A DNA stretch of 64,000 nt from a phage: the sequence record OZ336095.1; one strand, 5' to 3'. Shown one piece after another: positions 3,126 to 48,504 of the stretch. The translations under genes and the position numbers were made by a program. The notes beneath the pieces were generated by a model. The model worked only from the letters and a program-made list of their open reading frames with translations. It made no database searches and was not told the origin of the DNA. The number at the start of each line of letters is the position of its first letter. The stretch's first letter is position 1.

Positions 3126-3127
3126 AA

Positions 3128-4090
<963 letters not shown>

Positions 4091-4312
4091 AGTGATGCTG
4101 GTGAGTACCCGTTGGTTTATGCTGCTCAGTATACTCACCAAATTTTCTATGTCAACAACTTTTTATAAAAAAGTTCTGATAGCTATATGTGTCACGAAAC
4201 AAAAGATTGTAAACAAGACACCCATTGCAAAAGATGTGTCCAAAAGCTTACTTGCAACGTATGACAATACAAAGACAACCAGTATAAACAGAATGACTGT
4301 ACTGAACATAGT

Positions 4313-15430: not shown

Positions 15431-16471
15431 ATGGAGAAGTACACATTAAAAAAACTTCCCGATTCAGTTACACATGTCTTTATTGACTCTGACAGTATTG
15501 CCTATAAAGGTGCTTGTGTAGTTGAGAAAGCAAAATATAAATATGTCAATAAACTCACAGCAGAAGAATCTGAATCATTTGATAATGCAAAAGATGCTGC
15601 AAGATGGTTAGCAGACCAGAGAATCCTTGTGGAAGAGCTTGGCCTGACATTTGATGAAGATGAATGGGAAAGACAGACTTGGAAAGAAGCTAAGAGTGAG
15701 AAAGAAGCTATCATGGCTACTCAACAGGTTCTTCAGGAATGGCTTAAGGTGGTTGGTAAAGAGAGAACTTGGGTAGGTTATTTAACAGAGAAAGGTGTGC
15801 ATAAACATAAAGACATTAAAGGTCTTGAGCACCAATATCAAGGGAACCGTAAAGATGCTGTCACACCAACACACTTAGTTGCTTGTCGTGAGTATCTTCT
15901 GTCAAGACCAGAGTTCAAACTCTTAAAGGGAGGATTCGAAGCCGATTCAATCGTAATTGCTAAAGCTGAAAAGATGGGTAAGAAGGCTGCTCTTATGAGT
16001 ATTGACAAAGACCTTCGACAAGCTGAAGGAACTTATTGTATTGATATGACTTATGAAAAATCACCACTAATCTTTATTGCTGATAATAATGTTGGCGATA
16101 TCTGGGATTGTCCTATCAAATCAAAACCAAAAGCTGCAAAAACAGTTGGTGTAGGTTTTAAGTTCTTGTGCTATCAGGCTGTTGCTGGAGATAATGCAGA
16201 CAACTACTTCGGACTTAAAGGTGCTGGTAAAGTAGCTGTGATGAATGCTTTAGATGGTAAAGAGACCTACAAAGAGTGTCTTGATGCTATCTATGAACTC
16301 TATGCTAAAAAAGACTCTTACACCTATGTATCATGGGATGGACAGACTGTTACAAAGACACCGTTAGAGCTAATGGAACAGCATTTCTGGATAGCTTATC
16401 AAGAAAGAAATCCAAAAGATAATTTCTCTTTTAAGAAATATAATTGGGAGCCGTGTATGAATGAAGATTAA
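15431..16471 (+). CDS. 5'-3' exonuclease / flap endonuclease (RNase H-like)
   Basis: VFIDSDSIAYKGA N-terminal motif and EADSIVIAKA (EADD-type) motif of the FEN / 5' nuclease family. Confidence 0.6.
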   Translation: MEKYTLKKLPDSVTHVFIDSDSIAYKGACVVEKAKYKYVNKLTAEESESFDNAKDAARWLADQRILVEELGLTFDEDEWERQTWKEAKSEKEAIMATQQVLQEWLKVVGKERTWVGYLTEKGVHKHKDIKGLEHQYQGNRKDAVTPTHLVACREYLLSRPEFKLLKGGFEADSIVIAKAEKMGKKAALMSIDKDLRQAEGTYCIDMTYEKSPLIFIADNNVGDIWDCPIKSKPKAAKTVGVGFKFLCYQAVAGDNADNYFGLKGAGKVAVMNALDGKETYKECLDAIYELYAKKDSYTYVSWDGQTVTKTPLELMEQHFWIAYQERNPKDNFSFKKYNWEPCMNED

Positions 16472-16958
16472 AAGATTTGGCAATTGCCCCACCTATGGTC
16501 ATTGGGTATCTTTATGTGGGGAAGTTGACCCCACTAAACATTTTGGTTTTGTCTATTTAGTACACTGTAAGAAGACTGGACAATATTATATCGGAAAGAA
16601 ACAGCTTAATAGTGTGACCAAAAGAAAAGTTGCTGGCAAGACTCGGAAGAAGGTAGTCACTAAGGAGAGTGATTGGATGACTTACGAGACTTCTTCTGAG
16701 TATATTAAAAAAGATATTGAGAGCTTTGGAAAAGAATTTTTTGACTTTTACATTATCCAAACCTACTACACGAAAGGTGGTCTAGTTTATGGCGAAGCAA
16801 ACCTTCAACATAAATTCGATGTAATGACAAAAAGGATTGACTCTAAGCTCAGACTCTTCTACAATGCCAATATTGCAGCAATTAAGTTTATCACTAAAGA
16901 AACTTATGAAGATGCTGAAAAAAGAATCCATAAGGTAATGAAAGCAAATTGTGCTTGA
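16461..16958 (+). CDS. GIY-YIG-like domain protein (possible endonuclease)
   Basis: FGFVYLVHCKKTGQYYIGKK resembles the GIY...YIG motif spacing. Confidence 0.35.
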   Translation: MKIKRFGNCPTYGHWVSLCGEVDPTKHFGFVYLVHCKKTGQYYIGKKQLNSVTKRKVAGKTRKKVVTKESDWMTYETSSEYIKKDIESFGKEFFDFYIIQTYYTKGGLVYGEANLQHKFDVMTKRIDSKLRLFYNANIAAIKFITKETYEDAEKRIHKVMKANCA

Positions 16959-27692: not shown

Positions 27693-27963
27693 AGAGAAGT
27701 GGGAGATTTTACCATTAGTCAGTGAAGGTGGTAATGGTTGTGAGATGTACATGATACGTGGTCATGTTCCAGAACCAATTGCACTTGAGATGGTAAACAA
27801 CTTTACAGATGGCTCTTACAAAGACTTAGGAGAGCCAACTATAAAGCAGCAATGGGTAAAGCCTGTACCAGACAGCACAGGTAACTGTAGTGTACTTTAT
27901 CACGTTGTAGACCCTGCAAAATGCAAATCTGCAATGGCAGTAACAAACGTAACTTTTGATTGA
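27685..27963 (+). CDS. Hypothetical protein, 92 aa
   Basis: ORF track. Confidence 0.4.
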   Translation: MAKEKWEILPLVSEGGNGCEMYMIRGHVPEPIALEMVNNFTDGSYKDLGEPTIKQQWVKPVPDSTGNCSVLYHVVDPAKCKSAMAVTNVTFD

Positions 27964-27974
27964 GAGAGAAAACT

Positions 27975-28856
27975 ATGAAAACATCTATCCGTGTTACAGT
28001 TCATTCACCAACTAAAGGGACTCATGAAGAAGAGTTTAACATCGTCCAATTCCCTTCTGGTGAGATTGGTGGACACTTTTCGCCAGAGTTTGTTGATTTT
28101 ACTGCTTATGCAGCATCATCTATCAACAATGTGATTATGATTGTAAAAGGTTATGATAAGGACACATTGTTTGCTGTGGCACTTGCTAAAGAAGCAATTG
28201 ATGATTTAGTACCTCATAAGTTTGCTATGAAGACTGCTATCTTTTACTATTTGCCAAATGCACGTTACGACCGTCACATGTTTAAAGGTGATGCAGCAGC
28301 TTTGAAAGTGTTTGCACAACAGGTTAATGCAATGGGTTTTGATGCAGTCTGTGCAGTTGACCCTCACAGCTATGTACCAGATAACCTGTTTAACTGCTTC
28401 CAGAGTATTCCTCAAAAGGAAATTGCAGTCCACTATGCAAATGACCCACTGATTGATTACTTAGTAGCCCCAGATGCAGGTGCTGCTAAGAAGATTGCAG
28501 AGACTGCTAAAGAGGTGGATAAACCATACATCACAATGTCTAAAGTGCGTAACCTTAAGACTGGTGAAATTACTGGTATGCGAATCCTTGATGATGTTGA
28601 TTTGACAGATAAAACCGTCATGATTCTGGATGATATCTGTGATGGTGGTCGAACCTTCATAGAAGCAGCGAAGCATCTTCGTGAAGCAGGTGCAAAACGT
28701 GTGGAACTTTATGTAACACATGGTATCTTCTCTAAAGATGTTGAAAACCTTCTTGACAATGGTATCGACCATATTTACACTACAAACTCTTTAGGCGAAG
28801 CTAAAGACCGTGGCTTAACACATTACAGTCAAGTTACTGTAGCAAACCTTGATTGA
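27975..28856 (+). CDS. Ribose-phosphate pyrophosphokinase (Prs) homolog; candidate ADPR-PP synthetase of NARP1
   Basis: Prs-like motifs FPSGEIGG, YYLPNARYDR, VDPHS, VMILDDICDGGRTF (PRPP-binding loop), GAKRVELYVTHGIFS; ATG at 27975 (track start is TTG); immediately upstream of NAMPT-like gene. Confidence 0.65.
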   Translation: MKTSIRVTVHSPTKGTHEEEFNIVQFPSGEIGGHFSPEFVDFTAYAASSINNVIMIVKGYDKDTLFAVALAKEAIDDLVPHKFAMKTAIFYYLPNARYDRHMFKGDAAALKVFAQQVNAMGFDAVCAVDPHSYVPDNLFNCFQSIPQKEIAVHYANDPLIDYLVAPDAGAAKKIAETAKEVDKPYITMSKVRNLKTGEITGMRILDDVDLTDKTVMILDDICDGGRTFIEAAKHLREAGAKRVELYVTHGIFSKDVENLLDNGIDHIYTTNSLGEAKDRGLTHYSQVTVANLD

Positions 28857-28865
28857 AAGTTTATA

Positions 28866-28887
28866 GGGGCTTAAAAGCCCCATTTTG
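28866..28887 (+). terminator. Rho-independent terminator (weak T-run)
   Basis: ggggctt-aaa-agcccc hairpin followed by ATTTTG. Confidence 0.45.
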
Positions 28888-28901
28888 AGAGAGATTAAAA
28901 G

Positions 28902-30683
28902 ATGACTAAATCACTTTATGCAGTACCAGCAGGTTTAAACGCAGATGCTTACAAATCTGGTCATGTTTACCAGTACCCTAGTGCAACAGAATACTTGATG
29001 TTCAACCTGACACCACGTAGTGACAAATGGTTTAACAGCCCATTAGCAATTGATGGTGTAGTAGCTTTTGGTATTCAACGTTTCGTTAAAGATTACTTGA
29101 TAGACCACTGGAACGCCACTTTCTTTGAACGTGATAAAAAAGAAGCCATTGATGAAATATTAGAAGTCATGAATGGTGTTCTGGGTAAAGATGCTATCGG
29201 TCGAGAGCATTGGGAAGCACTTCACGACTTAGGTTATCTACCAGTTGAAGTATACGCTGTAGAAGAAGGTACAGTTGTCCCTATGCGTGTCCCAATGATT
29301 GTCTTCCAGAACACTGTTTCAGGTTTCCATTGGGTAGCGGGGTATCTGGAAGATGCTTTCTCTGCTGAGATTTGGAAGGCTTGTACCATTGCAACTATTG
29401 CATTGCATTATAAACGCATCTGTAAGAAGTGGGCTGACCTTACTTGCGACAACGACTTACATTTACCTTATCAGTGCCATGACTTTGCTATGCGTGGTAT
29501 GTCCGGCTTTACTGATGACGCATTTAACGCTGTAGGCCACTTAACCAGCTTTAAAGGAACTGATAGCTTCCCTGCTGTGTATACGGCTAAACGAATCTAT
29601 GGACAGTCTTACCCAATCTCTGATATTGGTAGCTCTGTACCAGCCACTGAGCACTCTGTAATGTGTGCAAACATTGCTTGGGAAGGTGGTAATGAGTTGA
29701 TTGAAGAAGAAAGACGCTTTAAAGGTGAGTTACAAACCTTCCGTCGTTTCTTAACAGAAACTTACCCAACTGGTATTGCAAGTATTGTTTCAGATACTTA
29801 TAACTTCTGGAGAACTGTGTCAGAAATCTTACCAGCACTCCGTAAAGAAATTATGGAACGTGATGGTAAACTGGTAATTCGCCCTGACTCTGGAGACCCT
29901 GTACATATTGTCACAGGTTATAAAGCAATCCACTTAGAGTGTGCTAAAAAGGCTTATTACGAGCACCTAAGCAAGCTTGAAGCCAGCGACACAATGTTGA
30001 ATGCTGTTCTGAACATGAAGCTTGAAAACATCAACTATGGTATTGCTGGATGGCTACTGTCAGAAGGCTACGAAATGGTTGTTGACAGAGAAGACTTTGA
30101 AGTTGCTGATACAGTGCTGTTGAAAAACGCTTATATGGTTGGTTCTGCAAACGTTGTAACACGTCCTGTAGCGGAGATTGATGGAGCTATCAAGACACTG
30201 TATAACATCTTTGGGGGAACTATTAACTCTAAAGGGTTTAAGGTACTGGATGAGCACATCGGCCTTATCTATGGTGACTCTATCACGCTGGAACGTGCAA
30301 ACGAAATCATGAAGCGTCTGTATGAAATGGGTTTTGCAAGCTCTAACGTAGTATTTGGTGTAGGCTCTTACACTTACCAGTACATGACTCGTGACACCTT
30401 TGCATTTGCTGTCAAAGCAACTCTTGCAAGCATTGGTGGTAAAGAGATTATGCTTGCAAAAGACCCTAAAACAGATAGTGGTGTTAAGAAATCTGCCTTT
30501 GGTGGTGTAGCACCTATGTGGGATGGTGAAAATCTGAAAGCTGTAGATGGCTATGGGTTCCAGAGCTTTGCAGATGCACTTGAACACCCAGCTTGTGCTT
30601 TACGTCTAGTCTTTAGTGACTCTGAGCAGTTCGGCTACACAACTCTTGGTGATATTCGAAATAATATTGACAAGCAGCTTTAA
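28902..30683 (+). CDS. Nicotinamide phosphoribosyltransferase (NAMPT/NadV) homolog; candidate nicotinamide ADPR transferase of NARP1
   Basis: 593 aa; N-terminal NADAYKSGHVYQYP resembles the NAMPT DSYKVTHYKQYP signature. Confidence 0.7.
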   Translation: MTKSLYAVPAGLNADAYKSGHVYQYPSATEYLMFNLTPRSDKWFNSPLAIDGVVAFGIQRFVKDYLIDHWNATFFERDKKEAIDEILEVMNGVLGKDAIGREHWEALHDLGYLPVEVYAVEEGTVVPMRVPMIVFQNTVSGFHWVAGYLEDAFSAEIWKACTIATIALHYKRICKKWADLTCDNDLHLPYQCHDFAMRGMSGFTDDAFNAVGHLTSFKGTDSFPAVYTAKRIYGQSYPISDIGSSVPATEHSVMCANIAWEGGNELIEEERRFKGELQTFRRFLTETYPTGIASIVSDTYNFWRTVSEILPALRKEIMERDGKLVIRPDSGDPVHIVTGYKAIHLECAKKAYYEHLSKLEASDTMLNAVLNMKLENINYGIAGWLLSEGYEMVVDREDFEVADTVLLKNAYMVGSANVVTRPVAEIDGAIKTLYNIFGGTINSKGFKVLDEHIGLIYGDSITLERANEIMKRLYEMGFASSNVVFGVGSYTYQYMTRDTFAFAVKATLASIGGKEIMLAKDPKTDSGVKKSAFGGVAPMWDGENLKAVDGYGFQSFADALEHPACALRLVFSDSEQFGYTTLGDIRNNIDKQL

Positions 30684-31086: not shown

Positions 31087-31452
31087 ATGAAAATCAAAGA
31101 GATGAACATCAACATTGTCTTAGAAGAACGTTGGGAGAACATCAATAAGCCTGAAGATGGCCATAAGTTTCTTAACAAAATTTTAGTAGCAGCTAAAGAA
31201 GAACTGACTGGCAAGGTCGCAGCAGCAATTACAATAAAGGTCTGCGTAAAAGGTCTTCCAGACAATCACCAATTTGCACTTGACGAGTTTAAAGGAAGCT
31301 TCTACAATCCAAACAAACAGATGCTTGAAAGTAACTTTGCAGTGTCTACAAGTATCGTTCATGACAGAAGCTTTATCCTTTACAAGAATATGAGAGGTGA
31401 GTCATGCAAGCATGCAAGCATATTGGATAGAAATTTTACTGTCACTCGGTAG
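31087..31452 (+). CDS. Hypothetical protein
   Basis: ATG at 31087 (MKIKEM; track start 31075 is TTG). Confidence 0.45.
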   Translation: MKIKEMNINIVLEERWENINKPEDGHKFLNKILVAAKEELTGKVAAAITIKVCVKGLPDNHQFALDEFKGSFYNPNKQMLESNFAVSTSIVHDRSFILYKNMRGESCKHASILDRNFTVTR

Positions 31453-37800: not shown

Positions 37801-38127
37801 ATGCAGATTAATGGAAGAGACTTTGTAGCCGTTTACTACGAGAAAGGTAAAGAGGTTGGTGTAGCACAAGTATCTTATGGCAATGGTAAGTGGCTATATG
37901 GGACAATCGCAGTAGTAGGAACAAGAAGTGATACAAAAACTTTTAAAGATTGTGTTGACCTTCTTGAAGAATCCATACACAATCATTGGTGTCTGATATG
38001 GATGACTGACAACGAAGTGATAGAACGCTTCAAAAAGATTGGTATCAACATTGATAGCATTGAACATGTTGATTTATATGAGCTAACTGAGAAGGTAAAC
38101 TATGAAAGTAATACTAGCCAGAGATAA
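37801..38127 (+). CDS. Hypothetical protein, 108 aa
   Basis: ORF track. Confidence 0.45.
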   Translation: MQINGRDFVAVYYEKGKEVGVAQVSYGNGKWLYGTIAVVGTRSDTKTFKDCVDLLEESIHNHWCLIWMTDNEVIERFKKIGINIDSIEHVDLYELTEKVNYESNTSQR

Positions 38128-38329
38128 AAAGACACGGAAACTTATCAGGTCAGCGGTGTTCATTGGACGAAATAAGGTCATACCATTTGCAGCAAATGAT
38201 GTGATAGCTTACCGGAAGAACTTAGTATTCACTGACTGTTTACGTGGCTTCATCTCTGAACCATTAGAACACTTTAAAAGTCGTTGTGGTAAAGGCATCA
38301 TCATTCAAGAGGTAATTATTCATGGCTGA
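38102..38329 (+). CDS. Hypothetical protein, 75 aa
   Basis: ORF track. Confidence 0.4.
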   Translation: MKVILARDKKTRKLIRSAVFIGRNKVIPFAANDVIAYRKNLVFTDCLRGFISEPLEHFKSRCGKGIIIQEVIIHG

Positions 38330-38522
38330 TTTCTGCAAAGACTGTGCTATCGAAATGTTTGGACGTGATACAGGTGATTTAAAAGGTCTTATCACTGAAG
38401 ATGACTTTAAAGCTGGCTATGCAATGCCAGTAATCTGTGAAGGTTGTGGGTGCATCTGGGTAGACCACGAAGGGCAACGTGTAAAACCTTCAGAAGATAA
38501 AGAATCTTGGGAGAGATGTTAA
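38322..38522 (+). CDS. Small Cys-containing protein, 66 aa
   Basis: ORF track; CKDC...CEGCGC. Confidence 0.4.
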   Translation: MADFCKDCAIEMFGRDTGDLKGLITEDDFKAGYAMPVICEGCGCIWVDHEGQRVKPSEDKESWERC

Positions 38523-39308
38523 ATGGGTATTGTAAAAATCATCAAAGGTGATATCTTTGACGCATTTGATAAAGGTAAGTTTGACATCATTGGTCACGGT
38601 TGCAACTGTATGAACTTCATGGGTGCAGGTATTGCAGCAACTATTTCCAAGCGTTATCCAAAAGTGTATGATACTGACACAGAAGTTTACCTGTTTGCAG
38701 GTGGCATTCGTCACAAACCCTGTGAAAATTTACTAGGTAATTTCTCTGTAGCACGTTTAAAACAAGGCCGTATAGCTAACCTTTACACCCAACTTCATAC
38801 TGGTAAAGATGCCCGATACAGTGCTTTAGAGTCATCTTTGAAACAGCTTAACAGATACTGTGAAGTTAACCAGTTGAAGAAAGTTGGTCTACCTATGATT
38901 GGTGCAGGTATCGGTGGGCTTGACCCTCAAGCTGTCACAGTTATCATTAATCAGGTGATGAAGAGTGTAGATGTTTATCTGTATGTCTATGAAGCAAAAA
39001 TGTATAATGAGTTACACTCAGGTTGGAAAAACTACTGTGAACCAGAATACTTTGCAGGTGTAGTTGTGTTCACAGATAACGAAGTTACCCTCTTCAGACG
39101 AAGAAAAGGTAAGATACATCAAAGTAACCCTCCGGTTGAAAAGATGTCTCTGAGTAACGCTCTAGTTACCCACCTGTCGAAGAGCAATCACAGGATTGCA
39201 GTAACATTTGGCAGTGATGCAGATACTTATATCTATGCAAGAACTGATGAGGATATCGAGACAGTTTTCTCTTCACCAGAAGTTACCTTCTTAGACGCAA
39301 AGAACTAA
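38523..39308 (+). CDS. Macro domain protein (ADP-ribose binding/processing) with C-terminal extension
   Basis: IKGDIFDAFDKGKFDIIGHGCNCMNFMGAGIAATI and GLPMIGAGIGGL resemble macro-domain Gly-rich diphosphate-binding loops. Confidence 0.55.
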   Translation: MGIVKIIKGDIFDAFDKGKFDIIGHGCNCMNFMGAGIAATISKRYPKVYDTDTEVYLFAGGIRHKPCENLLGNFSVARLKQGRIANLYTQLHTGKDARYSALESSLKQLNRYCEVNQLKKVGLPMIGAGIGGLDPQAVTVIINQVMKSVDVYLYVYEAKMYNELHSGWKNYCEPEYFAGVVVFTDNEVTLFRRRKGKIHQSNPPVEKMSLSNALVTHLSKSNHRIAVTFGSDADTYIYARTDEDIETVFSSPEVTFLDAKN

Positions 39309-39374
39309 GAAACTCTGTAGAATATTCACAATAGACCAAGCCTTTCTTATCTGGTAAATTTTTCAGGTAAGGAG

Positions 39375-39560
39375 GGCTTTTTCATTTCAGAATTGTGCAG
39401 GTAGATTTCTATAGAGAAACCTGTAGAGAAAATATTGAACTCCAAAGAGAAAATTCATTTTCAAACTGTGCAGATAATCTCCAAAGAGCTTTTTCATTTT
39501 CAAAACGTGCAGACCCCGCTCAGGTCGGGCAAGGAAAATCATTTTAGATTTGTGCAGGTA
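39375..39560. repeat. Degenerate tandem repeats (four units with core cattttcaaa.ygtgcag) followed by a polypyrimidine tract
   Basis: Units at about 39378, 39451, 39488, 39535; ccctctccccctcttactccccctctcccc at 39585..39615. Confidence 0.6.
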
Positions 39561-39737
39561 GGTTTTTATAGAGAGCCAGACCAACCCCTCTCCCCCTCTT
39601 ACTCCCCCTCTCCCCAAAAGTCAAGAGAAAAATTTGTAGCGGATTGAAAAATAATTCTTGATTTGTGTTCTGTTTTGTGGTAGTCGTGTGCGCCCGTTTC
39701 ATTACAGTTTTGCCAAAAATATTTTTAAAATTTTTTC

Positions 39738-39766
39738 TTGACTCTTTGAACGTGGTTATCTAGTAT
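39738..39766 (+). promoter_or_regulatory. Strong sigma70-like promoter at entry to small-ORF region
   Basis: TTGACT, 17 nt spacer, TAGTAT. Confidence 0.6.
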
Positions 39767-39774
39767 TTGCATCA

Positions 39775-39829
39775 ACGGGGAGGGAATGACCTTCCCCACT
39801 AAATAAAGTCCTAAACTGGAGATTCAAAA
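39775..39829 (+). repeat. Cassette type 1 (hairpin ggggagggaatgaccttcccc + actaaataaagtcctaaactggagattc + ATG)
   Basis: One of six near-identical copies preceding small ORFs. Confidence 0.7.
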
Positions 39830-40213
39830 ATGGCATATCGTGCACCTAAATTCATCAACAAAGACAACTTTCGCAACGCACTGGAGAAGTCACTTGATGA
39901 GAATTTTAAAGGTAACATTATCGTTGTTCACGCATTCAATTTTAAGTATGATGTAAACGGGAATAGAATCAACCATTACACGGCAACCATGTTAGATGGT
40001 ACACTTTCAAGTGAAAAAGCCGTACTAAATGCACTGGCAGGACGTGGAAAGGTATTAGTAAGATGTGATAAGAGACGTTATCAGGGCGGCGCATATGGTT
40101 ATGATGATGCTGTTTACCATCTTGAAAATATGGGCTATCAAGTAGAAAAAGCTGGAGCATCACAAATCATCGGCAGCGATGGTTATGTAACTATCTTCAA
40201 AATTAACAAATAA
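39830..40213 (+). CDS. Hypothetical small protein (cassette ORF), 127 aa
   Basis: ATG directly after cassette RBS GGAG; ends KINK inside next cassette. Confidence 0.5.
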   Translation: MAYRAPKFINKDNFRNALEKSLDENFKGNIIVVHAFNFKYDVNGNRINHYTATMLDGTLSSEKAVLNALAGRGKVLVRCDKRRYQGGAYGYDDAVYHLENMGYQVEKAGASQIIGSDGYVTIFKINK

Positions 40214-40299
40214 AGTACTTTACAAGGGGCTTATAGTTCGATAAAGTAAGCCCCAGATAAAGAGCTTTACCACTAAATCCTAAATTGGAGAACTTAAAA
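40214..40299 (+). repeat. Cassette type 2 (agtactttaca + hairpin ggggcttat...ataagcccc + agataaagagctttaccac.aatcctaaa.tggaga + ATG)
   Basis: One of seven copies; hairpin arms covary between copies. Confidence 0.7.
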
Positions 40300-40593
40300 A
40301 TGGCTATTATCAAAAACGTTGTAATTACTGCAAAGACTCGTGATGACGCTCGCGTTATGGCTAAAAAGTTATGCGGGAAAGTGGTTGACAATGGAAAACA
40401 ATCCGCTGTAAGGTGGGGCGTGAAGGTTGATAAACAGTTGAAGTTAAAAAATTCACCGATAAACCTTTTTACATGTGTAAACACTATCGGGAAGACAAAT
40501 GTATACACGAAAAAGGCATACATTAGGCGCGTAGCATTAACATCCCCCATTCGTACAATGAGAAGTTATGCAAAGCTGAAAATTAACAAATAA
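40300..40593 (+). CDS. Hypothetical small basic protein (cassette ORF), 97 aa
   Basis: ATG at 40300 after cassette (track start 40285 lies in cassette). Confidence 0.45.
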   Translation: MAIIKNVVITAKTRDDARVMAKKLCGKVVDNGKQSAVRWGVKVDKQLKLKNSPINLFTCVNTIGKTNVYTKKAYIRRVALTSPIRTMRSYAKLKINK

Positions 40594-40678
40594 AGTACTT
40601 TACAGGGGGCTTAAAAGTTGATATCTTAAGCCCCAGATAAAGAGCTTTACCACTCAATCCTAAACTGGAGATTCTAAA
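40594..40678 (+). repeat. Cassette type 2 copy
   Basis: Hairpin variant gggggcttaa...ttaagcccc. Confidence 0.7.
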
Positions 40679-41191
40679 ATGAAAACTGTAGACGCTACCT
40701 TTGAAGTTGTAAAAGAAAAATTTTCCATCATCTACGAAGCGGTAAATTGCTACGAAGCAAGCCATAATCTCGATAATTGGGAGTTTACAAACGACCATCA
40801 AGGCGGTGTGACTGTTAAAAATCCTAACTGTCAGCATAATGATTTTAAATATGCAATCCCTTTGCATTACAGCCTTAAACAGCTTTCAAGTGACTATGCA
40901 AAACAAGGCCGGGAAAATCCATCAAAAGAGGCTTACGCAAGCTTACAAAAAGAACTAGAAAGAGATTTAGAGGCTTCAGAGTACAGCCTTGCCGCGAAAG
41001 TTGTGGATGCAAACGGTAACACGGTTTTAGAAAGTTTTTATCTTGGTTATGCTTTCGATTGGTGCTATCGTGACGGCGATGATTTAGAGGATAGACTAAA
41101 AGAAGAGGTGAACAATTCAGACGCAGAAACTGAAGTATTAGAACGTTTGGAATCGTTGAAAGATTCAGTGATGAATATCTTTAAGAACTAA
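40679..41191 (+). CDS. Hypothetical protein (cassette ORF), 170 aa
   Basis: ORF track; cassette upstream. Confidence 0.5.
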   Translation: MKTVDATFEVVKEKFSIIYEAVNCYEASHNLDNWEFTNDHQGGVTVKNPNCQHNDFKYAIPLHYSLKQLSSDYAKQGRENPSKEAYASLQKELERDLEASEYSLAAKVVDANGNTVLESFYLGYAFDWCYRDGDDLEDRLKEEVNNSDAETEVLERLESLKDSVMNIFKN

Positions 41192-41283
41192 ATAGATTTC
41201 TTTACACGGGGTTATCAAGCTGGTAGGATAGCCCCAGATAAAGAGATTTATCAAATAAAGCCCTTAAACTAGGAGATTCTAAA
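41192..41283 (+). repeat. Cassette type 2, diverged copy
   Basis: Hairpin ggggttatc...gatagcccc with compensatory changes. Confidence 0.6.
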
Positions 41284-41580
41284 ATGAAATTATCAAATCA
41301 AGTGCGTGAAAATCTGAGCAAATTACTCAACAAAATTGATTTCATTGAAACATCAAGGAATAGCCATGATGTTATGGAATGGTTACACGGCAAAATAAAA
41401 GGTCGTCGTGTAGTGATTTGCTTATGGAACAGTTGCAGGGAGTATAAAAAACCTGTATTACAAGTCAATATCTATGATGATACTTTTAAAAGTCCAGTAA
41501 AGTCTAAAAGCGATTTATTAGAATCTTATGAGATATCTGTAAATGGCAAAGTATCACGTAATGAGGTAACACCATGTTAA
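41284..41580 (+). CDS. Hypothetical protein (cassette ORF), 98 aa
   Basis: ORF track. Confidence 0.5.
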   Translation: MKLSNQVRENLSKLLNKIDFIETSRNSHDVMEWLHGKIKGRRVVICLWNSCREYKKPVLQVNIYDDTFKSPVKSKSDLLESYEISVNGKVSRNEVTPC

Positions 41581-41906
41581 TGACTGGTATCACTGCAATC
41601 ATTGCCATTTTCGCGCTATATAAGGCATATAAAGCCTATAATCTAGCAAATAAGGCAATCACACAGCAGGTTAGTAATAACCTTGTAGAAAGCTTTCTAG
41701 GGCGCCTCAGTGATGAGCAAATAAAGCGGCTAGAGATGAGCTTCAGATATAAAGCGAAAACCTATCAGATAAGTGACATCTTTAAAGATGATTTTCAGTT
41801 AGTTGATGATTATAATTCTCTGATAAATGCTTTAAACGTCAGTGACTTGAAAGACTATCACGCTGTAATTGTTCAAGAATTGAGCAAACGAAAACAAAAC
41901 TGTTGA
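41574..41906 (+). CDS. Hypothetical protein with N-terminal transmembrane helix, 110 aa
   Basis: MLMTGITAIIAIFALYKAY; start overlaps previous stop. Confidence 0.45.
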   Translation: MLMTGITAIIAIFALYKAYKAYNLANKAITQQVSNNLVESFLGRLSDEQIKRLEMSFRYKAKTYQISDIFKDDFQLVDDYNSLINALNVSDLKDYHAVIVQELSKRKQNC

Positions 41907-41935
41907 CACTGGTTTTCAGATAGATTAAATTACAC
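41907..41935 (+). promoter_or_regulatory. Sigma70-like promoter candidate
   Basis: TTGACA, 17 nt spacer, TAAATT; near-identical copy at 43521. Confidence 0.45.
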
Positions 41936-41939
41936 ACCA

Positions 41940-41994
41940 ACGGGGAGGGAATGACCTTCCCCACTAAATAAAGTCCTAAACTGGAGATTCAAAA
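41940..41994 (+). repeat. Cassette type 1 copy
   Basis: Same hairpin and leader as 39775..39829. Confidence 0.7.
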
Positions 41995-42153
41995 ATGTTT
42001 TTTGCAGGTGATAAAGTTGTCTGGAATGATATAGATGACGGTTTATGTACGAAAGTTGTTGTTATCTTAGAAATTGATTATATCACTGGTGTTGCAACTG
42101 TAGCAGATAATGATATAATCTTTGATGTCTTAATTAGTGAACTGTCAAAATAA
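41995..42153 (+). CDS. Hypothetical small protein, 52 aa (below ORF-track cutoff)
   Basis: ATG directly after cassette; MFFAGDKVVWNDIDDG...VADNDIIFDVLISELSK. Confidence 0.35.
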   Translation: MFFAGDKVVWNDIDDGLCTKVVVILEIDYITGVATVADNDIIFDVLISELSK

Positions 42154-42178
42154 AATCCTTAAACTAGGAGCTTTTAAA

Positions 42179-42451
42179 ATGTACACTACTAACAACGGTC
42201 GCACTTTAAACGTAACCCTTCGTCACTATGTGAACGGTGTAATGCACTTCGAGGATTTACAAGCCGAACAACATATCTTAGATTGGCAACTAGCAGGACT
42301 CCAAAAAACTGCTACCGGATACGGCAAAAAGATTCCAACTAGCTGGAAAGTACACTATGAAGGACGTTTGCGCAGAATTTACCAAGATGTATGCAGCAAT
42401 AGCGCATCTAGTTACATCATAGTAAAAGGTAAAAAGCTGCATTTAGTATAA
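42179..42451 (+). CDS. Hypothetical small protein, copy 1 (90 aa)
   Basis: ATG after AGGAG RBS (track start 42137 is GTG); MYTTNNGRTLNVTLRHYVNG... Confidence 0.45.
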   Translation: MYTTNNGRTLNVTLRHYVNGVMHFEDLQAEQHILDWQLAGLQKTATGYGKKIPTSWKVHYEGRLRRIYQDVCSNSASSYIIVKGKKLHLV

Positions 42452-42536
42452 AGTACTTTACAGGGGGCTTATAAGTCTGTACAGTAAGCTCCCGATAAAG
42501 AATTTTATCACTCAATCCTAAATTGGAGACTCTAAA
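42452..42536 (+). repeat. Cassette type 2 copy
   Basis: Identical to copy at 43027..43111. Confidence 0.7.
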
Positions 42537-42692
42537 ATGGCTATTAATAATCGTGAACTGGCTGTATTAAAAGCACGTTTGACCGTCAACCGCATCAACG
42601 TTATTACATCAGCAGCACCGGACGAAACATTACACACTGTAGCAGATAATGATATAATCTTTGATGTCTTAATTAGTGAACTGTCAAAATAA
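42537..42692 (+). CDS. Chimeric small ORF created at duplication junction (51 aa)
   Basis: N-terminus equals start of 43112 ORF (MAINNRELAVLKARL...), C-terminus equals end of 41995 ORF (...VADNDIIFDVLISELSK); in frame across junction at 42635/42636. Confidence 0.3.
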   Translation: MAINNRELAVLKARLTVNRINVITSAAPDETLHTVADNDIIFDVLISELSK

Positions 42693-42717
42693 AATCCTTA
42701 AACTAGGAGCTTTTAAA

Positions 42718-43026
42718 ATGTACACTACTAACAACGGTCGCACTTTAAACGTAACCCTTCGTCACTATGTGAACGGCACTTTAAACGTAACCCTTCGTCA
42801 CTATGTGAACGGTGTAATGCACTTCGAGGATTTACAAGCCGAACAACATATCTTAGATTGGCAACTAGCAGGACTCCAAAAAACTGCTACCGGATACGGC
42901 AAAAAGATTCCAACTAGCTGGAAAGTACACTATGAAGGACGTTTGCGCAGAATTTACCAAGATGTATGCAGCAATAGCGCATCTAGTTACATCATAGTAA
43001 AAGGTAAAAAGCTGCATTTAGTATAA
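42718..43026 (+). CDS. Hypothetical small protein, copy 2 with 12-aa internal duplication (102 aa)
   Basis: Same as 42179..42451 plus duplicated TLNVTLRHYVNG. Confidence 0.45.
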   Translation: MYTTNNGRTLNVTLRHYVNGTLNVTLRHYVNGVMHFEDLQAEQHILDWQLAGLQKTATGYGKKIPTSWKVHYEGRLRRIYQDVCSNSASSYIIVKGKKLHLV

Positions 43027-43111
43027 AGTACTTTACAGGGGGCTTATAAGTCTGTACAGTAAGCTCCCGATAAAGAATTTTATCACTCAATCCTAAATTG
43101 GAGACTCTAAA
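43027..43111 (+). repeat. Cassette type 2 copy
   Basis: As above. Confidence 0.7.
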
Positions 43112-43516
43112 ATGGCTATTAATAATCGTGAACTGGCTGTATTAAAAGCACGTTTGACCGTCAACCGCATCAACGTTATTACATCAGCAGCACCGGACGA
43201 AACATTACACAACATTATCGGGAAGATTCAAGGCGTTATCTTAGACGTTGAAAATGTAAAAAACTCATTAGCCGACGTTGCAGCAGGTATCACACTAGAT
43301 GGCGCACAATATGAAATGTCCGACATGTTAGGTAAATCAAAGGTAATGAATAAAGAGATTGATTTAAAAATGTTTAGATTTGCCGTGAAAGTGTGGCTAT
43401 CTGTTGAGTATGACGCTAATTTTGCAATCGCTGATTTCTTTGCCACATGGTTGCAACGTAATTTGGCGAGTCATGACTTCCGTGACATCTGCGATGCAAT
43501 TTACGCAGAACTCTAA
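43112..43516 (+). CDS. Hypothetical protein (cassette ORF), 134 aa
   Basis: ORF track. Confidence 0.5.
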   Translation: MAINNRELAVLKARLTVNRINVITSAAPDETLHNIIGKIQGVILDVENVKNSLADVAAGITLDGAQYEMSDMLGKSKVMNKEIDLKMFRFAVKVWLSVEYDANFAIADFFATWLQRNLASHDFRDICDAIYAEL

Positions 43517-43520
43517 AAAT

Positions 43521-43549
43521 TTTATTGACACTGATTTTTAGATAGATTA
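43521..43549 (+). promoter_or_regulatory. Sigma70-like promoter candidate
   Basis: TTGACA, 17 nt spacer, TAAATT. Confidence 0.45.
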
Positions 43550-43561
43550 AATTACTCATCA

Positions 43562-43617
43562 ACGGGGAGGGAATAACCTTCCCACTAAGTAAAGTCCTTA
43601 AACTAGGAGATTCAAAA
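43562..43617 (+). repeat. Cassette type 1 copy
   Basis: Slightly diverged hairpin. Confidence 0.65.
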
Positions 43618-43866
43618 ATGATGAATTTTTTAAATATCCCTGATACTTGCCGACTGTTGACGCAACCAGAAAATTTAGGCAAACCTTTCCTGTACCATAT
43701 GCCAGACAATACACCAAAAACATATAGCTACACGGTTAACCGCTTTACGGGTTACGCTGCAAAAAACGGTTACAAGGTTACTACTCAAAAAGTAACACTA
43801 TTTACAAATATCGAAGAGCTTCCAACAATCGCTGTAAAACTAATATTTACGAAGAAGACGCAATAA
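43618..43866 (+). CDS. Hypothetical protein (cassette ORF), 82 aa
   Basis: ORF track. Confidence 0.45.
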   Translation: MMNFLNIPDTCRLLTQPENLGKPFLYHMPDNTPKTYSYTVNRFTGYAAKNGYKVTTQKVTLFTNIEELPTIAVKLIFTKKTQ

Positions 43867-43951
43867 AGTACTTTACAGGGGGCTTAAAAGTTGATATCTT
43901 AAGCCCCAGATAAAGAGCTTTACCACTAAATCCTAAACTGGAGATTCTAAA
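43867..43951 (+). repeat. Cassette type 2 copy
   Basis: As above. Confidence 0.7.
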
Positions 43952-44155
43952 ATGACTATTATTAACGGCGTATCTATCGAGACTGTACATATCAAAGACA
44001 TTAAAGTTGGTGATGTAGTCCTTTCCCACGGCGTAGAGAAAACTGTCACTGCAAAGGATATCAAAGATGATTCTTTCATGGGTAGAACTCTCTTCGGTGA
44101 TTCTTATTGCTTAGGTTATCTTGCAGTTTTAAAAGTTGTAAAAAATAACAAATAA
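43952..44155 (+). CDS. Hypothetical protein (cassette ORF), 67 aa
   Basis: ORF track. Confidence 0.45.
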   Translation: MTIINGVSIETVHIKDIKVGDVVLSHGVEKTVTAKDIKDDSFMGRTLFGDSYCLGYLAVLKVVKNNK

Positions 44156-44240
44156 AGTACTTTACAAGGGGCTTATAGTTCGATAAAGTAAGCCCCAGAT
44201 AAAGAGCTTTACCAATCAATCCTAAACTGGAGATTCTAAA
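44156..44240 (+). repeat. Cassette type 2 copy
   Basis: As above. Confidence 0.7.
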
Positions 44241-44783
44241 ATGAAATGTTTTCACGGTACTACTCAAGAAAATTTCCTCAACCTGATTAATAACGGTAAC
44301 AAGCCATCAGGTGCATGGAATTGTTCGGATATGGACGGCAATTTTTACGTGTATCCAGAAAATAAAATCTATGGCGACGATGAGGAAGAGATAACATCGG
44401 AGGGCATTCAGCAAGCTCTAGGCAATGCCACTATCACCGCAGCTTTTCAGATGAAGACTCAAAATATTGTTATCTTAGAACTCGATATTCCAGAGGATGA
44501 GCTAAATGATGATTATTCTTGTGATAATATGTCTGGCGTAGCAAGTTTTACAGAATACTTCGATTTAAATTGGATTAAAAAGGTTTACGTAACCGAGTTT
44601 AATGCGATGTTTTCACCTTTTTGTCTTCCTTCACTGGATAACCCAAATATGAACTATCTTGATGAGACATTAGAACTACTTGCTAAAAGTGTTCAACAAT
44701 CGGACAGTATTCAGGTTTTTTGTGACATCATGGATACACTGACAGAAAACATCGCAGAAGAGGATTTAAAGAGCTTTTTCTAA
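44241..44783 (+). CDS. Hypothetical acidic protein (cassette ORF), 180 aa
   Basis: ORF track. Confidence 0.5.
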   Translation: MKCFHGTTQENFLNLINNGNKPSGAWNCSDMDGNFYVYPENKIYGDDEEEITSEGIQQALGNATITAAFQMKTQNIVILELDIPEDELNDDYSCDNMSGVASFTEYFDLNWIKKVYVTEFNAMFSPFCLPSLDNPNMNYLDETLELLAKSVQQSDSIQVFCDIMDTLTENIAEEDLKSFF

Positions 44784-44848
44784 AACCTATACAATCACCT
44801 TATAAACACTGATTAGCCCCTCACAGGGGCTTTTAGAGGGCTTAAATC

Positions 44849-45082
44849 ATGCTTACAACCGTTTATCTCATCCTTTCTATTTGTAATGGCCATTCATGTG
44901 ACTTTAAAGGGCTTGAGGAGTTTACAGGGAGTAAAGAAAATGCTGTTCAAGTGTGCCAGATAGCAAGGCAAGACTACCCCGCCAGTGATGATATACAATG
45001 TTACTTTAAGACAGAAGATGAAGACGGTATCTATTTTGACAGCGTAGATGGTCAGTATGAAATTATCATTGAAAAAGACTAG
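44849..45082 (+). CDS. Hypothetical protein, 77 aa
   Basis: ORF track. Confidence 0.45.
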   Translation: MLTTVYLILSICNGHSCDFKGLEEFTGSKENAVQVCQIARQDYPASDDIQCYFKTEDEDGIYFDSVDGQYEIIIEKD

Positions 45083-45116
45083 ACAAGCCTGATAAAAATC
45101 TGTAAATTGTCAATAA

Positions 45117-45172
45117 ACGGGGAGGGAATGACCTTCCCCACTAAATAAAGTCCTAAACTGGAGATTCTAAAA
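45117..45172 (+). repeat. Cassette type 1 copy
   Basis: As above. Confidence 0.7.
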
Positions 45173-45514
45173 ATGGCTTATGTAACTGTAATTACCAATA
45201 AAGAAAATTCATCTTGGTCAACTCAAGTCAGTGATAAGATGTCACCTATGCAGTGCCTAAAATACTTTGAGCAGTGGAACAAAGGCGAGGGTGTCAGCCC
45301 CTTTCAAGTGATGCAAATCATCCATACGGATAACGAAGGGAACAAAACGACACTTAATAGCGAATATTACGCAAATCGTTTTGAGAGTCGAGTTGAAACG
45401 ATGAAGGGGCTACGTGAGGCCGGATATGGGCACATTGCCGCCCTGTTATGGGATAACCTACTAAAAAACCAACGTATCAGCTATGTAAAACCTGAAAAAA
45501 TATTCATCAGTTAA
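45173..45514 (+). CDS. Hypothetical protein (cassette ORF), 113 aa
   Basis: ORF track. Confidence 0.5.
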   Translation: MAYVTVITNKENSSWSTQVSDKMSPMQCLKYFEQWNKGEGVSPFQVMQIIHTDNEGNKTTLNSEYYANRFESRVETMKGLREAGYGHIAALLWDNLLKNQRISYVKPEKIFIS

Positions 45515-45711
45515 TCAATAACTTACAAAAAACTTTTAAAAAAGTGTTGACAATACCCATTGACATTGGTAACTTTGTTCGAGGGGGTTATCTAAAAGGG
45601 ATTCACTTAACAGATTCTTTATATATAAACTTAAAAATTGCTTGCAATCACTTTCTAAAAGCCCTATAGTATCTATCAAGCAAAACAACTTCCTAAACTG
45701 GAGAAATCAAG

Positions 45712-46239
45712 ATGAATAAGTTCACAGCAATCAATACTATTCGCTCAAAAGACGTAATGAAAAAGCCTGTCAAGGATACTTTCGAATTTACCCTGAAAGA
45801 TAAAACTTTTGCAGTTATCACGAAAGGGGAAGATAAGAAATATTACATACATCGCCCAAATCAGCAAATGATAACAGCTAACAGCTTTATGAAGGCCGTA
45901 GCGGTTATCCTGCCGGATTATATGGCTATCGTCGCAGAAATTCACGAAATGGCTATCAAGGCGACTAAAAACGAGCTAAACCAATACAAAATGGCTTATG
46001 AACGCTCTATAAAGTCTCATAACCTTTTTATTGCAATTTTCTACACTGGCGTGTCTGCTACTGGTACAGGCAATCAACAACACCCAATCTATGAAGTTGA
46101 AAAACTGTTTACAAGTGAATACAAAACAGATATTTTTAAAGTAACGTTAGGCAAGGCATTAACAGACTTAATCAAGCTTTACGAAAAATCTTTAAAAAAT
46201 TTAGAAAATGCACTTGACGAAACGTTATCAAATCTTTAA
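45712..46239 (+). CDS. Hypothetical protein, 175 aa
   Basis: ORF track; GGAG RBS. Confidence 0.5.
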   Translation: MNKFTAINTIRSKDVMKKPVKDTFEFTLKDKTFAVITKGEDKKYYIHRPNQQMITANSFMKAVAVILPDYMAIVAEIHEMAIKATKNELNQYKMAYERSIKSHNLFIAIFYTGVSATGTGNQQHPIYEVEKLFTSEYKTDIFKVTLGKALTDLIKLYEKSLKNLENALDETLSNL

Positions 46240-46250
46240 AGTATCTATCA

Positions 46251-46305
46251 AGGGGAAGAAATCACTTCCCCACTAAATAAAGTCCTTAAACTAGGGGTTA
46301 TCAAG
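46251..46305 (+). repeat. Cassette type 1 copy (diverged)
   Basis: ggggaagaaatcacttcccc hairpin plus conserved leader. Confidence 0.6.
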
Positions 46306-46569
46306 ATGGAAAACGTAGAATTAACCACACTATTGCAGATTGCAACTGACAAAGAAGATGTAGCACTGTTTCACCGTATCGAAAGCGATTTATTCAATGG
46401 TGAAATCATCAAAGAATCTTACGAAGTTGTCGGATTCAAAGATGGTAAAGCATTTGGATTCTTTGACCTCGACAAAGGCAACGCTGTTACAAAGTACGAT
46501 GTTTTGTCTTGTGAGATTCTTACAAAATACAACGAAAAAAGGCTTGCAACATACGCCAATATGCAGTAA
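46306..46569 (+). CDS. Hypothetical protein (cassette ORF), 87 aa
   Basis: ORF track. Confidence 0.45.
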   Translation: MENVELTTLLQIATDKEDVALFHRIESDLFNGEIIKESYEVVGFKDGKAFGFFDLDKGNAVTKYDVLSCEILTKYNEKRLATYANMQ

Positions 46570-46580
46570 ATTACTAATTA

Positions 46581-46633
46581 ACGGGGGATGACCTCCCCCA
46601 CTAAGTAAAGTCCTAAACTGGAGAATCTAAATT
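46581..46633 (+). repeat. Cassette type 1 copy (diverged)
   Basis: gggggatgacctccccc hairpin plus conserved leader. Confidence 0.6.
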
Positions 46634-46882
46634 ATGTCAACTATCCGCGTAACTGTTAATGCTTATGGCTGCCACGAACTTGATGCAAAATTCGATATCG
46701 GTGGAACAAATAACACCTTTGACCTTATCAAAATGCTGATTCAGCAGGTGCTACCAGATTATAACCCTACCGATGACTTTTGGAAGGACGCTGTAAAAGA
46801 AGCCATAAACGAGGAATATCACTACCACTACTGGGGAGAAAAAATTGTCTCCCTGTACTACAACAAGCAAGATTATAACTAA
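46634..46882 (+). CDS. Hypothetical protein (cassette ORF), 82 aa
   Basis: ORF track; last plus-strand gene before the repeat region. Confidence 0.45.
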   Translation: MSTIRVTVNAYGCHELDAKFDIGGTNNTFDLIKMLIQQVLPDYNPTDDFWKDAVKEAINEEYHYHYWGEKIVSLYYNKQDYN

Positions 46883-46920
46883 TCGACGCAGCGGGGCTAT
46901 TTAGCCCCAGATACCTTGAC

Positions 46921-46946
46921 AGCCCCTATTTAAAGGGGCTTTTTTA
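46921..46946 (+). terminator. Rho-independent terminator
   Basis: agcccct...aggggct hairpin followed by TTTTTT; second hairpin ggggctatttagcccc just upstream. Confidence 0.6.
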
Positions 46947-46950
46947 CGTC

Positions 46951-48504
46951 TATCCAATCCTTATACAATCCCTTTCCTTTCCTTTCCAGAATCTTACTAG
47001 ACCTTAAAAGCAATAACTCTATAGTCTACTCTATAACCTCTTATCAAATCAACTTAAATAAAAGCCAATAACCCCAGAAAGGGGATGGCCCATTTAAACG
47101 CTCTATAAAGCTCTATAACATCCTTATCAACCTAACTTAAGGGATTGCATTAACTCACCCTAAAAAGCCCTTTATAAAGCTTCCTAGAGACTTAAAAGAA
47201 TCTTATAAGGGTGTAAGCTTTATCGTCTCGTTAGTATTCTTGTGAATAACTAAACAACCCCTTGATAGTCACTAAAAAGTATGTTATAGGGGCTATAAAG
47301 TAGCTTAAAAGTTGCTTAAAAGTTACGTAAATGCTAGCCCCCTTAACATTTTCTTAACAATTTCTTAACAATCCCTACATAGTTATGCTTGTTAGAGACT
47401 TGTTAGCCCCTTGTTAAATCTCTGTTAAGACCACGTAAAAACCTTGTAAGAGTCTTTGACATAGCCTTAAAAGCTCCTGTAAAGCCCTATAAAGAGCTAT
47501 CCATACAGTTGAGGGGTAGATACTAGGAAGAGGCTTAAAAGAACTTATAAGGGGCTATAGAGAGCTTTTAAGAGGCATGTTTAGAGAATCACTAAGAGAG
47601 AAAGGGAACGATAAGAAAAGAGATAGTGACCATGTTAATAGCTTGTTAAAAAGATTAAACACTTGTTAGGAACTTGTTAATTATCCCTACAAAATAACTC
47701 TTTAAAATTAACTTGTTAGCTCTTGTTAGTCATCTGTTAAGATTCTGTAAAGTCTATGTATCAACTGTTAAGAAACTGTTACATCCCTGTTAGTTCTGTT
47801 AAGAGTCTATTAAGACCTTTGAAGAGTTGTTAAGAGCTTGAGAGAGTTGTTAAGAGATTGTTAAGGATATTTTAAAATTTTGCAAAGTACTTGTAAGGGA
47901 GTTGTTAAGGGTTACCAAGCAGATATACATCCTCAACAGATATTTTTGAGTTCCTTCAAAGACCCTAAAAAATGACTTGATAGCCCTATTTTATAAAAAT
48001 TTTAAAATTCTGAATAATTACCTAGACAGTCTTTTAAAAATACAGGCATAAACAGGCTTATAAGATACCTTGTTAGTACCGTGTTAGACCTTGTGAGATA
48101 AGGTCTGTAAAGATATTCCTGTTAAGTTTGTTAAAACAGTCTATATAGAGGCTTAGTAGCTCCTAGTGAACACCTATAGAGGGTATCATAGCTGACATAG
48201 AGATTAAGAGGTGTATAGGAGCTTCTAAGAGGGTGTAGAGAGATGGTTAAGGTGATTGTATAGGTTGTTAAGAAGGCTTGTTAGAGGGCTTGTTAGAAGG
48301 GTTATACAGAGGGGCTATTAAGACCACTAGATAGTTACTAAGACACTATATAGTACTATATAACTATATAGAGAGTAAGATTAAGAAGGTTGTTAAGAAG
48401 GATAGATATTTTATTCACATATGATGGTGACCCAGAGGTTGGGACAACCGATAAAATTTTATAAAAATTAAAAAGCCCCCGATTAAGGAGGCTCTTAAGA
48501 TATT
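46951..48504. repeat. 1.6 kb ORF-free region dense in short repeats
   Basis: No ORF of 60 aa or more on either strand; more than 25 copies of YTGTTAAG/YTGTTAG (some as CTTAACAA) and many CTTAAAAG/CTATAAAG/CTTATAAG units. Confidence 0.85.

Follow-up and report, generated by a model that had tools for sequence, protein, structure and literature searches.

Tandem amplifications of 0.7-kb units have been documented in the T4 and T6 phages (PMC9391042; PMC13096335). In T4, dmd-tifA is amplified against toxIN (Srikant et al. 2022, PMC9391042), and in T6 a 718-bp tRNA-Tyr/segB unit is amplified against Septu (PMC13096335). Spontaneous tandem duplications are also known from the rII region of T4, as far as the later work citing them describes them (Kumagai et al. 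1993, cited in PMC9391042). In T4-like phages, PeSL (promoter/stem-loop) cassettes mediate modular shuffling (Arbiol et al. 2010, PMC2839356; Comeau et al. 2014, PMC4122927). Here, we describe a tandem duplication in a 64,000-nucleotide stretch of phage DNA (sequence record OZ336095.1; hereafter the window), in which a 539-bp segment with one complete early gene, phrog_3436, stands twice head to tail. The window is that of a Felixounavirus (Felix O1/wV8/VpaE1-like); its closest phage records are ~92% identical to it, and it has a 26-gene tRNA block. On balance, we consider the repeat to be a genuine and very young segmental duplication, for which a microhomology-poor template switch during replication is the most likely origin.

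The duplicated unit occupies positions 42097-42635 and recurs directly, with no spacer, at 42636-43210; all the features of the locus described here are on the plus (+) strand. The two copies match at every one of the 539 aligned positions (0 mismatches), and the sole difference between them is a 36-bp insertion in copy 2, which lies after offset 141 at 42777-42812 and brings this copy to 575 bp (539 + 36). The insertion is itself the second half of a nested tandem repeat, reported by Tandem Repeats Finder at 42740-42812 with a period of 36, 2.0 copies and 100% matches. The 539-bp repeat is the one long perfect repeat of the 64-kb window and, as no second one is found there, a chance origin can be ruled out. 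A preliminary description of this DNA, made from the letters alone, had reported a head-to-tail repeat of roughly 540 bp with essentially identical copies and a perfect 36-bp direct duplication in the second copy of the gene, and all of this proved to be exact. The composition that it gave for the unit also stands, whereas two of its limits had to be corrected: the repeat starts at 42097 and not at 42094, and it takes in the first 33, not 30, codons of the downstream gene.

Both ends of the unit lie inside unique coding DNA. The left one (42096/42097) falls within an open reading frame (ORF) of 52 amino acids (aa) at 41995..42153 (MFFAGDKVVWNDIDD...), the last 57 nt of which open the unit. These are followed by a Shine-Dalgarno sequence and the entire 90-aa early gene in its wild-type form at 42179..42451 (MYTTNNGRT...; phrog_3436, PHROG E=1.6e-51), by an 85-nt intergenic type-2 cassette at 42452-42536 (fold -24.3 kcal/mol, z = -3.2; repeat family D1), and by 99 nt (33 codons) from the start of a 134-aa gene, within which the right breakpoint is located (42635/42636, which corresponds to 43210/43211 in copy 2). 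In copy 2, the early gene extends over 42718..43026 and encodes a 102-aa variant, as the 12-residue segment TLNVTLRHYVNG is present twice. The type-2 cassette of this copy, at 43027..43111, is identical to that of copy 1, and the intact 134-aa gene follows at 43112..43516 (MAINNRELAV...; phrog_4327, PHROG E=2.5e-84), with its first 99 nt still in copy 2. Judging by the sequence, the duplication entailed no gene loss: the 52-aa and the 134-aa genes each retain one intact copy.

At the novel junction, 42635/42636, TTACAC is joined to ACTGTAGC with a microhomology of 1 nt (TTACAC/ACTGTA, 42630..42641). The junction creates the chimeric 51-aa ORF at 42537..42692 that had been noticed earlier, in which 33 residues from the N-terminus of the 134-aa gene (MAINN...DETLH) are followed in frame by the final 18 of the 52-aa ORF (TVADNDIIFDVLISELSK). 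The chimera has no relatives and is probably a by-product. The junction of the nested repeat (GAACGG joined to CACTTT) also has a microhomology of 1 nt, and this repeat ends 177 nt beyond the 539-bp junction.

The age of the duplication was judged from public short-read contigs of the same strain (Logan; k=31 contigs), which were recovered by exact-protein look-ups. The exact 90-aa protein was present on 11 public contigs. Once copy 2 is taken out, three of the Logan contigs match the window at 100% identity, and all three also hold the exact 134-aa protein: L009 (SRR20302282), L010 (SRR6379774), a 1349-nt contig identical in five samples, and L011 (SRR6379770). L009 and L010 cross both duplication boundaries unbroken and show a single copy, 100% identical to copy 1 and free of the 36-bp insert, and L011 spans the right boundary and the place of the 36-bp insert. 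Over ~61.9 kb of the window, zero substitutions separate it from the contigs of SRR6379761/67/68/69/70/74/75 and SRR10045325, and its private differences from them are only three tandem duplications, of 539, 36 and 8 bp. The literature was also searched for the sequencing runs and yielded nothing on them. Because contigs identical at every other base hold the single-copy allele without the insert, the duplication is very recent: by this comparison of sequences, it arose later than every substitution that sets the window apart from the population nearest to it.

The related phages agree with this. Each of the 146 related phage records with the unit contains a single copy of it and lacks the junction, the two halves of which map ~540 bp apart and in reversed order in these genomes. 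The 90-aa gene itself is single-copy in 238 phage records (240 matching places); two of these records have a second match, and one of the two, Sf16, was checked and contains no tandem duplication. Each of 26 IMG/VR loci also has one gene copy. The recent event proposed in the preliminary description is thus borne out by the single-copy allele on otherwise identical contigs and by the 146 records without the junction, and the concerted evolution that it had offered as an alternative is contradicted by the 238 records, in which no relative has two copies.

The duplicated allele itself was not met elsewhere. The 31-mer across the 539-bp junction was absent from viral_contigs, metagenome_contigs and genome_contigs, that across the 36-bp junction was absent from viral_contigs, and the junction of the 8-bp duplication was absent from the viral and metagenome contigs. 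Exact look-ups returned no record of the 51-aa chimera among 153 billion gene positions, and none of the 102-aa variant or of its 116-aa GTG-start form. This absence is weak evidence, because k=31 contigs break at tandem repeats and such look-ups would miss the allele.

The third private difference is found far from the other two, at 31404-31419, where an 8-bp sequence with CAT flanks (CATGCAAG) stands twice; five public contigs that are identical in all other respects do not have this duplication. It doubles the ATG of a 58-aa ORF (MQAYWIEILL...) located just upstream of an rIIA-like gene. The first ATG now starts an ORF of 8 codons, and the 58-aa ORF begins at the second one, which puts 8 nt more between it and its ribosome-binding site. 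An overlapping 111-aa ORF acquires a new C-terminus at this site and becomes 10 residues longer.

The gene duplicated as a whole, phrog_3436, is annotated in PHROG as being of unknown function, and its 90-aa product belongs to no Pfam family. Nearly all of its 47 close protein clusters are exactly 90 aa long, and 39 positions are invariant among them. A profile search (E <= 0.001) extended the family to 851 representative clusters of 70-100-aa proteins, which share the C-terminal core TGYGKKIPT...RLRRIYQD..SNS..SYI. The named members gave no functional lead, as all of them are entered as 'hypothetical protein' and come from virulent enterobacterial phages. The gene is clearly conserved and under purifying selection, and a benefit of dosage cannot be argued from its function. 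Among the relatives of the 90-aa gene, proteins P0040-P0047 from several public contigs carry frameshifts at A-runs (CAAAAAAC, GGCAAAAAG), which are either homopolymer sequencing errors or a sign of recurrent gene inactivation.

In the AlphaFold2 model, the 90-aa protein is a small all-beta fold (predicted local distance difference test score, pLDDT, 78.8), and the 12 residues duplicated in copy 2 correspond to strand beta-1 with its turn. When the 102-aa variant is modeled, residues 1-18 come out disordered, beta-1 is formed by the second copy of the repeat, and the core has a pLDDT of 85-94. The models suggest that the variant probably folds and has a longer, floppy tail at its N-terminus. 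Both gene copies keep the same upstream 82 nt, in which the preceding ORF stops 25 nt before the ATG and which contain an AGGAG Shine-Dalgarno sequence and TGATATAAT; because this segment is preserved in each of them, both should be translated. Copy 2 sits behind one extra type-2 cassette. The genome would now hold two translatable copies of phrog_3436, one of them wild-type and the other with a 12-residue N-terminal repeat, and the main effect would be a higher dose of the protein.

The element TGATATAAT, which resembles an extended -10 sequence, occurs at 42111-42119 and again at 42650-42658, at the end of the 52-aa ORF sequence and ~60 nt upstream of the 90-aa start. The -35 (TTGCAA) of this putative promoter spans the left boundary of the unit and is replaced in copy 2.

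As for the way in which the duplication formed, we infer that backward template switching, either in replication or in break repair, is the simplest model. A nascent strand or a broken end would have switched back by 539 nt on its template during replication with almost no homology (1 nt), so that the end of the 52-aa ORF, the entire 90-aa gene with its ribosome-binding site, the stem-loop cassette and 33 codons of the 134-aa gene were copied once more. A second backward switch, of 36 nt, may have taken place in the same error-prone tract of synthesis, 177 nt on, or may have been a later, independent slip; through it, 12 codons close to the N-terminus would have been doubled in the new gene copy. 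The homology at the three private junctions is 1 nt for the 539-bp, 1 nt for the 36-bp and 3 nt for the 8-bp event. The chance that an independent event falls within the 1.1-kb duplicated tract is ~1.7% (1114/64000), and the clustering of the two events therefore points either to one complex event with two switches or to selection acting twice on the same gene.

Several observations weigh against this picture of a genuine, switch-born duplication with two translatable copies. The duplication is read from the sequence record, the allele is in none of the public collections searched, and every run with a retrieved contig of this strain carries the single-copy allele. Three private tandem duplications with zero substitutions are an odd spectrum, which could indicate a technical origin. 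The 1-nt overlap is at about chance level and marks no biological pathway. AlphaFold2 judges the tolerance of insertions poorly, and the expression of either copy is predicted from sequence signals only.

The explanation that survives best beside a genuine duplication, though we give it clearly less credit, is an artefact: the phage would be single-copy, and the extra 575 bp together with the 8-bp repeat at 31404 would have come from mis-resolution of repeats, from chimeric library molecules or from sequence editing. Contigs of the identical strain from at least eight public runs are all single-copy, the three private junctions are matched nowhere else, and a set of differences made up of three duplications and no substitutions is unusual. 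The region is also hard to assemble, being rich in repeated cassettes at which the k=31 contigs break (ends at 40655, 41968, 43891, 44217 and 45145). However, the ends of the duplication are in unique coding sequence outside the repeated cassettes, and an assembler is more prone to collapse a tandem repeat than to invent a novel junction. To produce such a junction, any assembler needs its k-mers in the reads, and a mixture of wild-type strains cannot create them. An origin from overlapping ends is excluded (see below), a clean in-frame 36-bp repeat that distinguishes the copies is an unexpected type of error, and a similar feature is present in the record of an independent isolate, the phage Michonne. 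The 8-bp event also has a CAT...CAT flank typical of slippage, which supports a real variant, as do the amplifications of similar tandem units known from experiments on T4 and T6. Whatever probability is not taken up by a genuine duplication and by an artefact falls to minor or undetermined alternatives.

A special case of a genuine duplication is adaptive amplification of the 'accordion' kind, in which more of the phrog_3436 protein, or an altered form of it, helps the phage on some host, for example against a defence system, and in which the 12-codon repeat is the first divergence of the spare copy. We regard this as rather unlikely. In its favor, two of the three private events strike the same 273-bp gene, and the unit was found to contain a complete gene with its translation signals, TGATATAAT and a type-2 cassette. 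The gene is among the small early accessory genes and is conserved as a single copy, with its 39 invariant residues, across the 238 records, which are from Ounavirinae; the nearest documented cases, those of dmd-tifA and of tRNA-Tyr/segB, are adaptive. On the other hand, a single complex template switch explains the clustering of events equally well, the copy number is just two, and the single-copy allele dominates every run sampled. Nor do the boundaries show a microhomology of 2-10 bp, as there is 1 nt at each of the two junctions, and 3 nt only at the unrelated 8-bp event. Compensating deletions were not found in the ~61.9 kb compared with the identical strain, and none is needed, because this phage group packages its DNA with direct terminal repeats. 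It is doubtful, therefore, but conceivable that the window is a natural snapshot of the first accordion steps in a wild Felixounavirus, in which phrog_3436 has been amplified by selection, for instance through a host defence that the protein counteracts or by which it is sensed, and in which one of the copies has already gained an N-terminal repeat of 12 residues; a related idea of the same low standing is that template-switch duplications dominate the mutational spectrum of this lineage, as they make up 3/3 of the private differences.

Two further explanations are very improbable. The first, that the copies are the cassette-driven product of unequal homologous recombination (PeSL-like) or an old pair of paralogues under concerted evolution, has some basis in the region, which is crowded with repeated cassettes of two families. 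Some relatives have the 52-aa ORF and others lack it, and in contig L009 genes of 82 and 67 aa are lacking, so that loss or gain of genes between cassettes does occur. But the ends of the unit in the 52-aa and 134-aa ORFs share 1 nt and have no cassette; the breakpoints are in coding DNA and not in promoter/stem-loop cassettes, as crossing-over between these would have it. The related genomes hold no second copy and the identical strain has one, hence the pair is not old and concerted evolution of paralogues was rejected too. The second, that direct terminal repeats of the phage were juxtaposed when a linear record was circularised or concatenated, was likewise rejected: although Felixounavirus packaging uses short direct terminal repeats of a size similar to 539/575 bp (581 bp reported for Pr103Blw, PMC8303462, and ends of 581 bp that are 100% identical to each other in the phage D4, PP886228), the D4 repeat maps once, at 47337-47916, ~4.1 kb downstream of the unit, the unit ends within two ORFs, and the 36-bp difference between its copies does not suit terminal repeats, which are regenerated as identical sequences.

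The segment equivalent to the D4 terminal repeat (47337-47916) is non-coding and has short tandem repeats at 47342-47372 and 47801-47860. Its single occurrence inside the window implies that the window crosses the physical end of the genome, as in a circularised assembly. As regards the gene loss mentioned above, L009 (SRR20302282) has at its positions 1040-1110 what corresponds to 43622-44246 of the window, and the 82-aa and 67-aa genes are missing from this near-identical phage. The breakpoint is exactly in the Shine-Dalgarno/ATG end that the cassettes share and, because it lies in this ribosome-binding-site/ATG end, the loss can be regarded as a cassette-mediated (PeSL-like) indel.

The genuine duplication that we favor is set in a run of small same-strand ORFs at ~38-47 kb, which are separated by the two cassette families. 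The type-1 cassette upstream of the 52-aa ORF (41903..41994; repeat families D2/D4) is outside the duplication and consists of a sigma-70-like promoter, TTGACA-17-TAAATT (10/12 in the promoter scan), a short GC hairpin, GGGGAGGG/CCTTCCCC, also seen in the predicted fold, and a ribosome-binding site. Type-2 cassettes have a long stem-loop that begins at the stop codon (-24 kcal/mol, z ~-3.2 to -3.5), and then a ribosome-binding site. Direct repeats of 39 bp (type 1) and 57 bp (type 2) have already been described in Felix O1 (PMC3185647), and the annotation of wV8 (EU877232) carries the cassette repeats as DR_1 to DR_9. An Rfam scan of 38000-48500 gave no match. No PDB relative was found for the 134-aa protein, and the 52-aa ORF has neither a Pfam nor a PHROG match; it is annotated as a 52-aa gene on related contigs as well. 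This ORF is nearly invariant (0-1 changes) across genomes that are only ~90% identical elsewhere and is missing from wV8-type genomes, which suggests an insertion that separated the 90-aa gene from the type-1 cassette and has spread recently.

Elsewhere in the window, positions 2423-4100 are non-coding and C/A-rich; they contain tandem repeats of 10 nt (CCACACCAAA) and a repeat of ~98 nt that occurs three times (2515-2612, 3774-3871 and 3928-4025). At 27960-30683, a gene similar to phosphoribosyl-pyrophosphate synthetase (Pribosyltran/Pribosyl_synth) adjoins a gene of the NAPRTase family, according to the Pfam marks on contig L016; the pair is reminiscent of the phage genes for the reconstitution of nicotinamide adenine dinucleotide. 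A SegE-like GIY-YIG homing-endonuclease gene is found at 16461-16958 (Pfam mark on contig L021). GIY-YIG homing endonucleases of this kind drive the segmental amplification in T6 (PMC13096335), and no connection between the gene at 16461-16958 and the duplication was found.

Within the same subfamily, the closest counterpart is found in the Citrobacter phage Michonne (KT001916; contig L054, 2834-3700), which has a private, near-perfect tandem duplication of 430 bp comprising an 85-aa early gene and cassettes. Its junction reads AAAATG joined to CTTTACATGG, and no second phage record has it. The two cases have in common that they occur in the same early gene block of Ounavirinae, that one small gene is repeated head to tail and that each is known from one record only. 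They differ in the gene concerned and in the unit, which in Michonne runs from a cassette to a start codon, so that it gives no chimeric ORF, and contains no nested repeat.

The PeSL promoter/stem-loop cassettes of the hyperplastic regions of T4-like phages (PMC4122927) resemble both cassette families described here. The setting is also alike: small ORFs clustered in a hyperplastic block, with conserved regulatory cassettes on either side of each and with cassette-bounded indels among relatives. However, the breakpoints of PeSL shuffling are in the cassettes, whereas the duplication reported here ends in coding DNA.

The duplication is akin, in its mechanism as in its outcome, to the amplifications in T4 and T6. 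In those phages, as here, a sub-kilobase unit containing a whole small early gene is repeated head to tail, its boundaries cut the neighboring genes and leave truncated or chimeric ORFs, the repeat arises within few generations, and the spare copy is an extra target for mutation. But the T4 and T6 boundaries have a microhomology of 6-10 bp (or 2-10 bp) against 1 nt here, and the copies are many rather than two. T4, moreover, packages by headful and needs compensating deletions, whereas the group of the present phage packages with direct terminal repeats and no deletion is seen in the ~62 kb compared. The duplications in T4 rII, as they are cited, are similar to ours in being illegitimate, spontaneous events at short homology in a virulent myovirus. 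The amplifications in T4 and T6 arose under laboratory selection and have a measured benefit, and the rII duplications were obtained by genetic selection, whereas the present one is read from sequence only.

In the poxvirus K3L 'genomic accordion' (Elde et al. 2012), amplification is reportedly followed by mutation in one of the copies. The concept is the same, in a eukaryotic virus in which an adaptive benefit is said to have been demonstrated; that benefit has no counterpart shown here.

Seen against these systems, the event is of a well-known type and its general significance is modest, but it stands out for its youth and for the ancestral allele being at hand. Should it prove to be an artefact, it would serve as a useful warning on the assembly of cassette-rich phage regions. 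If it is real, phrog_3436, a 90-aa all-beta protein encoded by essentially every Ounavirinae genome, becomes a candidate for functional testing. A real duplication would also be a natural example of how duplicates of small accessory genes are born in the early regions of phages, with the ancestral and the derived alleles both available on an otherwise identical genome background.

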